In this document: piece after piece, positions 29 to 199 of the stretch | Position numbering within the stretch: the stretch's first letter is position 1 | Layout: each line of letters starts with the position of its first letter | Assembly (NCBI RefSeq): GCF_003334405.1 | Contig: NZ_QOWM01000072.1 | Reading direction: 5' to 3' (one strand) | Source: Escherichia coli | Lineage (GTDB): Bacteria; Pseudomonadota; Gammaproteobacteria; Enterobacterales; Enterobacteriaceae | DNA: 276 bases | Program-made: the position numbers and the translations under genes | The notes under the pieces: generated by a model | The model's input: only the letters and a program-made list of their open reading frames with translations | Told to the model about the DNA's origin: nothing | The model's database searches: none

Positions 29-199
29 CCTTAAAGAAGCGTACTTTGCAGTGCTCACACAGATTGTCTGATGAAAAGTGAATAGCAAGGCGTTTACGCG
101 TTGGGAGTGAGGCTGAAGAGAATAAGGCCGTTCGCTTTCTATTAATGAAAGCTCACCCTACACGAAAATATCACGCAACGCGTGATAAGCAATTTTCGT
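29..199 (+). other. 16S-23S internal transcribed spacer (ITS1), 5' portion, of the tRNA-Glu spacer type; transcribed and removed during processing, non-coding
   Basis: Seen in sequence: it lies between the 16S 3' end (28) and the tRNA 5' end (200), and has no long ORF. Established knowledge: enterobacterial rrn operons carry either tRNA-Glu or tRNA-Ile plus tRNA-Ala in this spacer. The spacer text (CCTTAAAGAAGCGTACTTTG...GCTGAAGAGAATAAGGCCGTTCGCTTTCTATTAATGAAAGCTCACCCTACACGAAAATATCACGCAACGCGTGATAAGCAATTTTCGT) matches my recollection of the E. coli tRNA-Glu type spacer; this was not verified by alignment. Confidence 0.85.

Follow-up and report, generated by a model that had tools for sequence, protein, structure and literature searches.

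The spacer that follows the 16S rRNA gene in an rRNA operon of Escherichia coli contains a perfect 6-bp inverted repeat, and this raises the question of whether the repeat forms a real helix of the rRNA primary transcript and whether such a helix takes part in processing. The window, that is, the whole stretch of 276 nucleotides (nts) analyzed here, is 100% identical to E. coli chromosomes. The operon that it matches in a K-12-derived genome is located downstream of clpB, at the position of rrnG. The 3′ end of the 16S rRNA occupies positions 1-28 of the + strand, according to an Rfam SSU match (model positions 1506-1533) and to the annotated 16S in matching E. coli records. The tRNA-Glu(UUC) gene, detected by ARAGORN and by the Rfam tRNA model (60 bits), occupies positions 200-275 of the same strand, and the spacer between the two genes is 171 nts long. 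Positions 34-70 (+ strand; about 1548-1584 in 16S numbering) are the trailer strand of the 16S leader-trailer helix and pair with the leader when leader and trailer are co-folded; how far the helix must extend to be functional is taken from Warner et al. 2023 (PMC10250234). An Rfam search of the window returned only the tRNA and the SSU 3′ end, and positions 29-199 had no match even at E values up to 10. In the RefSeq record of ER1709, tRNA-Glu is found in the operons adjoining murI (rrnB), yieP (rrnC), purH (rrnE) and clpB (rrnG). Two published texts (PMC4696680 and PMC5179076) assign tRNA-Glu to rrnB, C, D and G, and this listing looks like a slip in those texts.

The preliminary description of this DNA took GCTTTC at 134-139 to be the exact reverse complement of GAAAGC at 147-152, with TATTAAT as the loop, and re-reading the sequence bears this out. 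Written as RNA, the element (134-152, + strand) pairs GCUUUC with GAAAGC over 6 bp and has UAUUAAU as its 7-nt loop. One explanation is that it is a chance inverted repeat in neutral spacer DNA and that its structure is not selected. The frequency of such repeats speaks for this explanation, as at least one perfect 6-bp hairpin with a loop of 3-10 nts was found in 37% of the dinucleotide shuffles of the window and in 27% of the shuffles of the spacer. Because 27-37% of the shuffles contain one, the inverted repeat alone is not beyond chance, and the dispensability of the surrounding block, described below, also counts in favor of this explanation. When a 31-mer carrying the hairpin was folded in isolation, its energy was -7.2 kcal/mol (z = -4.8), a value equaled by one of 200 shuffles. 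The hairpin is present in both the minimum-energy and the centroid fold of the spacer. Folding in precursor context, proposed earlier as a check, gave the same result, since the pairing probability of the hairpin was at least 0.95 with the whole leader, the trailer and the tRNA folded together. In these co-folds, the leader starting from P1 or P2 paired with about 34-105 of the window and the hairpin was untouched.

Inspection of the minimum-energy folds places the hairpin in a predicted Y-shaped fold, a three-way junction at 102-160 of the + strand, of which it is arm 2. The outer stem is formed by a 5′ strand at 102-110, with A106 bulged, and a 3′ strand at 153-160; the predicted pairs are T102-A160, G103·T159, G104-C158 and G105-C157 in its outer part, and G107-C156, T108-A155, G109-C154 and A110-T153 in its inner part. 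Arm 1 (111-129) is a stem of 4 bp, GGCT/GGCC, with an 11-nt loop, and its predicted pairs are G111-C129, G112-C128, C113-G127 and T114·G126, the last being a U·G pair. An unpaired linker, GTTC (130-133), separates arm 1 from arm 2. Since no base lies between arm 2 and the outer-stem pair A110-U153, arm 2 and the 8-bp outer stem can stack on each other. The earlier suggestion that the hairpin might be part of a longer helix thus agrees with the predicted fold, in which the hairpin would be one arm of a junction and would abut an 8-bp stem.

The junction is followed by a second structure, the tRNA-proximal hairpin (162-199, + strand), which consists of an 8-bp basal stem (162-169/192-199) and an 8-bp upper stem (169-176/180-187) and terminates exactly at position -1 of tRNA-Glu. 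It is the strongest structure of the spacer, and a substrate paired as far as position -1 is unusual for RNase P. The spacer also contains a perfect 8-nt inverted repeat, ACGCGTTG (96-103) and CAACGCGT (176-183), with 72 nts between the two copies; if these copies paired, the entire junction would lie between them, and the upper stem of the proximal hairpin would have a competitor. A terminator call on the minus strand at 187-169 is made up of the same upper stem and a T-run. This call was a single match within the shuffle expectation, and is probably incidental.

Whether the predicted helix is maintained was judged from spacers of other taxa. In a MAFFT alignment, the hairpin aligns column for column in six junction-bearing taxa, E. 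coli and five others. The stem is GCTTTC/GAAAGC in E. coli, CGTTTC/GAAACG in Cedecea, GGTTTT/AAAACC in Tatumella and GATT/AATC in Pantoea, and in Cronobacter and Limnobaculum it is GATTTT/AAAATC with one extra C-G pair. The loop, in contrast, is TATTAAT in E. coli only; GTTAA, TCAC, ATCT, CTGAAGA and CCCG are found elsewhere, with lengths of 4-7 nts. RNAalifold independently picked the hairpin helix, as the best supported one in the alignment. Over the six genera, 100% of the cells of this helix pair and double changes are seen at three of its six pairs. Among the cells with letters across taxa, there is no one-sided variation and no broken cell in the hairpin pairs. When the partner strand was slid by 1-3 columns, pairing fell to 30-70% (five taxa). 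The preliminary description had named an alignment of the spacers as the way to look for compensatory changes, and the alignment supplies them, because three of the six stem pairs are doubly changed and every cell remains paired.

The basal stem of the proximal hairpin behaves in a similar manner, with compensatory changes at 4 of its 8 pairs. For the hairpin and this basal stem taken together, 98.8% of the cells pair in the six taxa and 7 of the 14 pairs are compensatory. None of 500 shuffles reached their covariation score, and sliding the partner left 24-66% of the cells paired. These counts rest on six sequences in two lineages and include shared ancestry. When the junction domains were folded alone, all six taxa gave the same three-way junction, with an outer stem of 8-11 bp, arm 1 of 4-8 bp and arm 2 of 4-7 bp. 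The comparative data, with all cells paired and compensatory change at three of six pairs in six genera, lift the hairpin above the chance level. The idea of a chance repeat in unselected DNA is largely refuted by this covariation, because six genera keep the pairing despite changes at half of the stem pairs, the slid-partner controls collapse and the entire junction architecture is conserved; we consider it very improbable. Within E. coli, the copy of strain KD0845 carries G151A, which breaks the C135-G151 pair without compensation, and differs at two further positions, both in the proximal hairpin's loop. This copy is the most divergent among about 4,000 and could be a sequencing error.

Watson-Crick covariation by itself fits an inverted repeat in DNA as well as a hairpin in RNA, and a DNA-level element has to be considered, either a palindrome bound by a dimeric protein, or a cruciform or a site of recombination that serves gene conversion among the rrn operons. 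The 19-mer falls just short of a full palindrome, because the ATTAAT of its loop is palindromic as well, and the block that contains the hairpin has been gained and lost between operons, both of which would suit such an element. However, the spacing of the half-sites (4-7 nts) and their sequences differ by taxon, which suits a hairpin in RNA and is a poor fit to a dimeric site of fixed spacing, and the boundaries of the block, at 94 and 199, lie away from the hairpin. Further evidence comes from the neighboring helices of the same fold. G·U pairs are found in the outer stem or in arm 1 of every one of the six junction domains, and the reverse complement of the domain gives a less stable fold in all six cases. 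The G·U pairs indicate that the + strand RNA is the folding species. In accordance with that, two sampled E. coli variants carry C157T, which converts G105-C157 to G105·U157; this still pairs in the + strand RNA and is a C·A mismatch on the other strand, and therefore favors RNA. Given these observations, a role for the repeat as DNA seems most unlikely. The description of the element as an RNA stem-loop in a transcribed spacer is upheld by the covariation, the G·U pairs and the weaker folds of the reverse complements, with transcription deduced from the position within the operon.

The AT-rich loop, TATTAAT, matches TATAAT at 4 of 6 positions, and it could be read as the -10 element of a promoter within the spacer, perhaps the weak 'Pi' of rrnB, that would drive tRNA-Glu or downstream transcription. 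PMC5179076 places Pi somewhere in the rrnB spacer (citing Zacharias & Wagner 1989), which is compatible with this reading. A consensus scan of the window and of the whole spacer, however, gave no promoter, and A2 and T6 are never combined in one hexamer in or near the loop, on either strand. At a distance of 16-18 bp, the best candidates for a -35 element (AGAGAA, GAGAAT and AGAATA) match TTGACA at no more than 2 of 6 positions. In addition, the loop is not conserved in the other taxa, and the confirmed internal promoter for the spacer tRNAs sits inside the 16S gene (PMC5179076). We find the promoter hardly credible, and its dismissal in the preliminary description holds, given that there is no -35 element, no hexamer with A2 and T6 and no conservation of the loop.

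Three other signals were tried as candidates and rejected. For an intrinsic terminator, three of the six stem pairs are G-C, the stem is followed by UCACCC and not by a U-run, and the scan gave no site on the + strand. For an RNase III processing stem, the hairpin has 6 bp, and stacking with the outer stem brings this to 14 bp, compared with the near-continuous duplex of about 20 bp or more in such stems. For the rrn boxB-boxA signal, no boxA (a TGCTCTTTAACAA-like sequence) occurs in the window, and the spacer boxA comes after tRNA-Glu.

The location of the hairpin becomes clearer when operons of one genome are compared. An alignment of the four Glu operons showed that the hairpin belongs to an optional block of 106 nts at 94-199 of the + strand; rrnB and rrnG carry the block, and rrnC and rrnE have the 20-nt sequence CTTGCGAAGCAGACTGATAC instead. 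The distance from 16S to tRNA-Glu is accordingly 171 nts in rrnB and rrnG versus 85 nts in rrnC and rrnE, and the Glu-type spacers fall into size classes of 440 nts in rrnB versus 354 nts in rrnC. The two sizes in which ribotyping finds the Glu-type spacers of E. coli are thus explained by the presence or absence of the block. With positions 76-199 of the window as query, the block was found at 4,008 places in 2,791 of 5,426 complete E. coli genomes, and a 39-mer query agreed; the flanking 16S and tRNA-Glu sequence was matched in every genome. The number of copies per genome ranges from 1 to 7 with a median of 1, and all of the about 4,000 copies are at least 96.8% identical. In the one single-copy genome that was checked, the block is in the operon adjoining clpB (rrnG). 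Strain C9 (NZ_CP010129.1) has the block at seven places, versus one or two in most genomes. Because seven long Glu spacers leave no space for the Ile/Ala operons, this is likely an assembly artefact in the rrn repeats. The optional status of the block, which the preliminary description overlooked, is the main fact about this region.

We take the block at 94-199 to be the one described by Harvey and co-workers in 1988 under the name rsl (ribosomal spacer loop), which reportedly measures 106 nts in rrnB and is replaced by 20 nts elsewhere, because these sizes match the numbers of our alignment (106 versus 20 nts). The two also share the place between 16S and tRNA-Glu and the same pattern of presence and absence among operons and strains, the latter being seen here as a strain polymorphism that leaves the block in about half of the genomes. 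The name refers to a heteroduplex loop between operons and not to an RNA fold. On this identification, the block is a polymorphism known since the 1980s. PMC4696680 cites the title of that work (Harvey, Hill, Squires & Squires 1988, J Bacteriol 170:1235).

A patchy distribution is also seen among the relatives of E. coli. Glu-type spacers of 85-87 nts without the block were found in Salmonella, Citrobacter, Enterobacter, Klebsiella, Proteus and Intestinirhabdus, the Klebsiella sample comprising two species and three operons, and the spacer from 16S to tRNA-Glu is 58 nts in Plesiomonas. Spacers of 164-176 nts with a homologous block are present in Cedecea colo, Cronobacter dublinensis, Pantoea stewartii, Tatumella morbirosei and Limnobaculum eriocheiris. 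Providencia has one long hairpin where the junction would be, and the genome CP033106.1 has either the tRNA-proximal hairpin alone or neither module. In Aeromonas and Zobellella the spacer is long, contains several hairpins and closes with a tRNA-proximal hairpin of the same type. From this distribution the spacer looks modular. The proximal hairpins of Aeromonas and Zobellella indicate that this hairpin is older than the junction and, as it extends beyond Enterobacterales, that the short form probably derives from an old long form. The short forms have GCGTCTTGCG in common with the 5′ end of the long form of Limnobaculum and AAGCA in common with the 3′ part of the long forms, which also suggests this order. 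The rrn spacers of CP033106.1 precede either a 76-nt tRNA-Glu starting with GTCCCCATCG or a 75-nt tRNA-Glu with a different D-arm, and are 107 nts and 91 nts long, respectively.

The sampling behind this distribution was of several kinds. A scan of a genome collection, anchored on the 16S end and tRNA-Glu, gave 10 loci; it was not exhaustive, and neither Escherichia, Salmonella nor Klebsiella was among these loci. Anchoring on murI gave a usable long form from Cronobacter alone, with two assemblies that have N-gaps in the spacer and P. phytobeneficialis, whose locus is without the 16S end, left out. The operon downstream of murI is of the Ile/Ala type in Salmonella, Kosakonia, Intestinirhabdus, Franconibacter, Pantoea alhagi and P. 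vagans. When the blocks of Cronobacter and Cedecea were compared by BLAST with plasmid records and with E. coli genomes, no additional copies appeared. Of two metagenome scans, one gave no match and the other gave two chance matches inside a GC-rich coding gene, and a scan of viral contigs gave no match. An 84-codon ORF is called inside the 16S gene (L025, 5901-6155; L043, 6044-6298). This ORF is spurious and matches the 252-bp 'ORF16' of PMC5179076. Used as an exact-match handle for rrn operons, it returned the operons of two genomes, none of which has the junction.

An alignment of window positions 85-199 with the five other taxa separated the blocks into two lineages by sequence, which do not follow the family tree. 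The block of Cronobacter, a member of the Enterobacteriaceae, is 85% identical to that of Tatumella (Erwiniaceae), and 62% and 52% identical to those of E. coli and Cedecea, respectively. This suggests, as far as sequence comparison goes, that the two lineages are old alternative spacer alleles or the outcome of lateral exchange.

The preliminary description also held that the stem-loop most plausibly contributes to the folding or processing of pre-rRNA, but a meaningful role in processing found no support. The block is missing from rrnC and rrnE, from about half of the E. coli genomes and from the Glu spacers sampled from five other genera. When the trailer was truncated to nt 1589 or 1584, which corresponds to window position 75 or 70 and removes the block, 30S activity was unchanged (Warner et al. 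2023, PMC10250234). The RNase III signals determined by RNA-seq all fall within the leader-trailer helix, at about +21 and +49 from the end of 16S, with the signal of rrsB-gltT at about +21 (PMC5371410). The evidence that the block is dispensable is strong, because 2 of the 4 Glu operons of the K-12 type, about half of E. coli and many genera are without it and 30S activity withstands trailer truncations that remove it.

On the other hand, a structure conserved in Enterobacteriaceae, Erwiniaceae and Budviciaceae is more than an inert spacer needs, and a specific function is therefore possible. The junction with its hairpin could be a specific functional RNA, either a site at which a protein or nuclease tunes the maturation of 16S or tRNA-Glu, or the structured core of a trans-acting spacer RNA (about 62-199) that would persist after cleavage by RNase III and RNase P. 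Such a function would be in line with the compensatory changes that preserve the structure across three families, the identity of at least 96.8% among the E. coli copies and the pairing of the proximal hairpin up to position -1 of the tRNA. A passive insulation of the tRNA found no support as the alternative, since about 64-66% of the shuffled blocks left the predicted cloverleaf of tRNA-Glu at least as intact as the native block did. Against a specific function, the block is missing in half of the E. coli genomes and in many genera, and 30S activity was the same after its removal (PMC10250234). The block contains none of the listed RNase III sites (PMC5371410), positions 29-199 drew no match from Rfam, and our literature search found no stable RNA or binding partner from the region. 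The loops also vary in sequence and length, which makes a sequence-specific loop contact or seed unlikely. Taken together, we regard a specific functional RNA as rather unlikely.

A bolder form of this idea, which we hold to be quite improbable, is that selection maintains the 106-nt module as an RNA cassette that can be exchanged and has a particular task. In certain operons it could slow or guide the processing of tRNA-Glu by RNase P and RNase E, or it could be the source of a stable spacer-derived RNA. If this were true, the two lineages that depart from the family tree would represent lateral or inter-operon spread of a functional element and not drift.

We consider it probable that the primary rRNA transcript really forms this hairpin, as arm 2 of the junction, and that the hairpin belongs to an accessory and optional module of 106 nts. 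The hairpin would fold locally, probably as soon as it is transcribed, and selection would keep the helices paired wherever the module exists, while 16S rRNA and tRNA-Glu would mature in operons without the module as well. The likely role of such compact, self-contained helices would be to hold about 100 extra nts of spacer that would otherwise be a loose single strand. Cuts by RNase III (near window position 61) and RNase P (199/200) would then free the spacer piece for decay.

The hairpin can be compared with other helices of the same transcript. Its closest counterparts are the trailer-trailer helices of pre-16S, for which examples such as Geobacillus are discussed (Gemler et al. 2024, PMC11404451); these are local, lie downstream of the leader-trailer helix, covary and differ between operons of one species. 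The hairpin resembles them, being local and on the transcribed strand and showing compensatory substitutions in six sequences. An earlier analysis of Enterobacteriaceae (PMC10250234) covered a short trailer segment that ends well before the hairpin. The leader-trailer helix belongs to the same transcript and spacer and is likewise a covarying helix in which structure is kept over sequence. However, it is a long-range pairing of leader and trailer with 25-40 bp, is essential for 30S biogenesis and is cut by RNase III, whereas the hairpin is local, has 6 bp, lies about 65 nts past the functional part of that helix, is dispensable and is without reported cleavage. The boxB of the rrn boxB-boxA-boxC signal is also a short hairpin in the leader and spacer RNA of rrn operons, but the spacer boxB-boxA comes after tRNA-Glu, outside the window (TGCTCTTTAAAAA in the rrnG operon of ER1709), and no boxA follows the hairpin.

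For biology at large the finding carries little weight, as the operon is among the best studied. Its use lies in annotation, where the hairpin can be entered as a real and conserved helix of the pre-rRNA within an accessory module, and not as a promoter or a processing signal. The covariation also shows that spacer RNA keeps a defined fold even where it is dispensable, which fits the view that the structures flanking the mature sequences in pre-rRNA are diverse but constrained.
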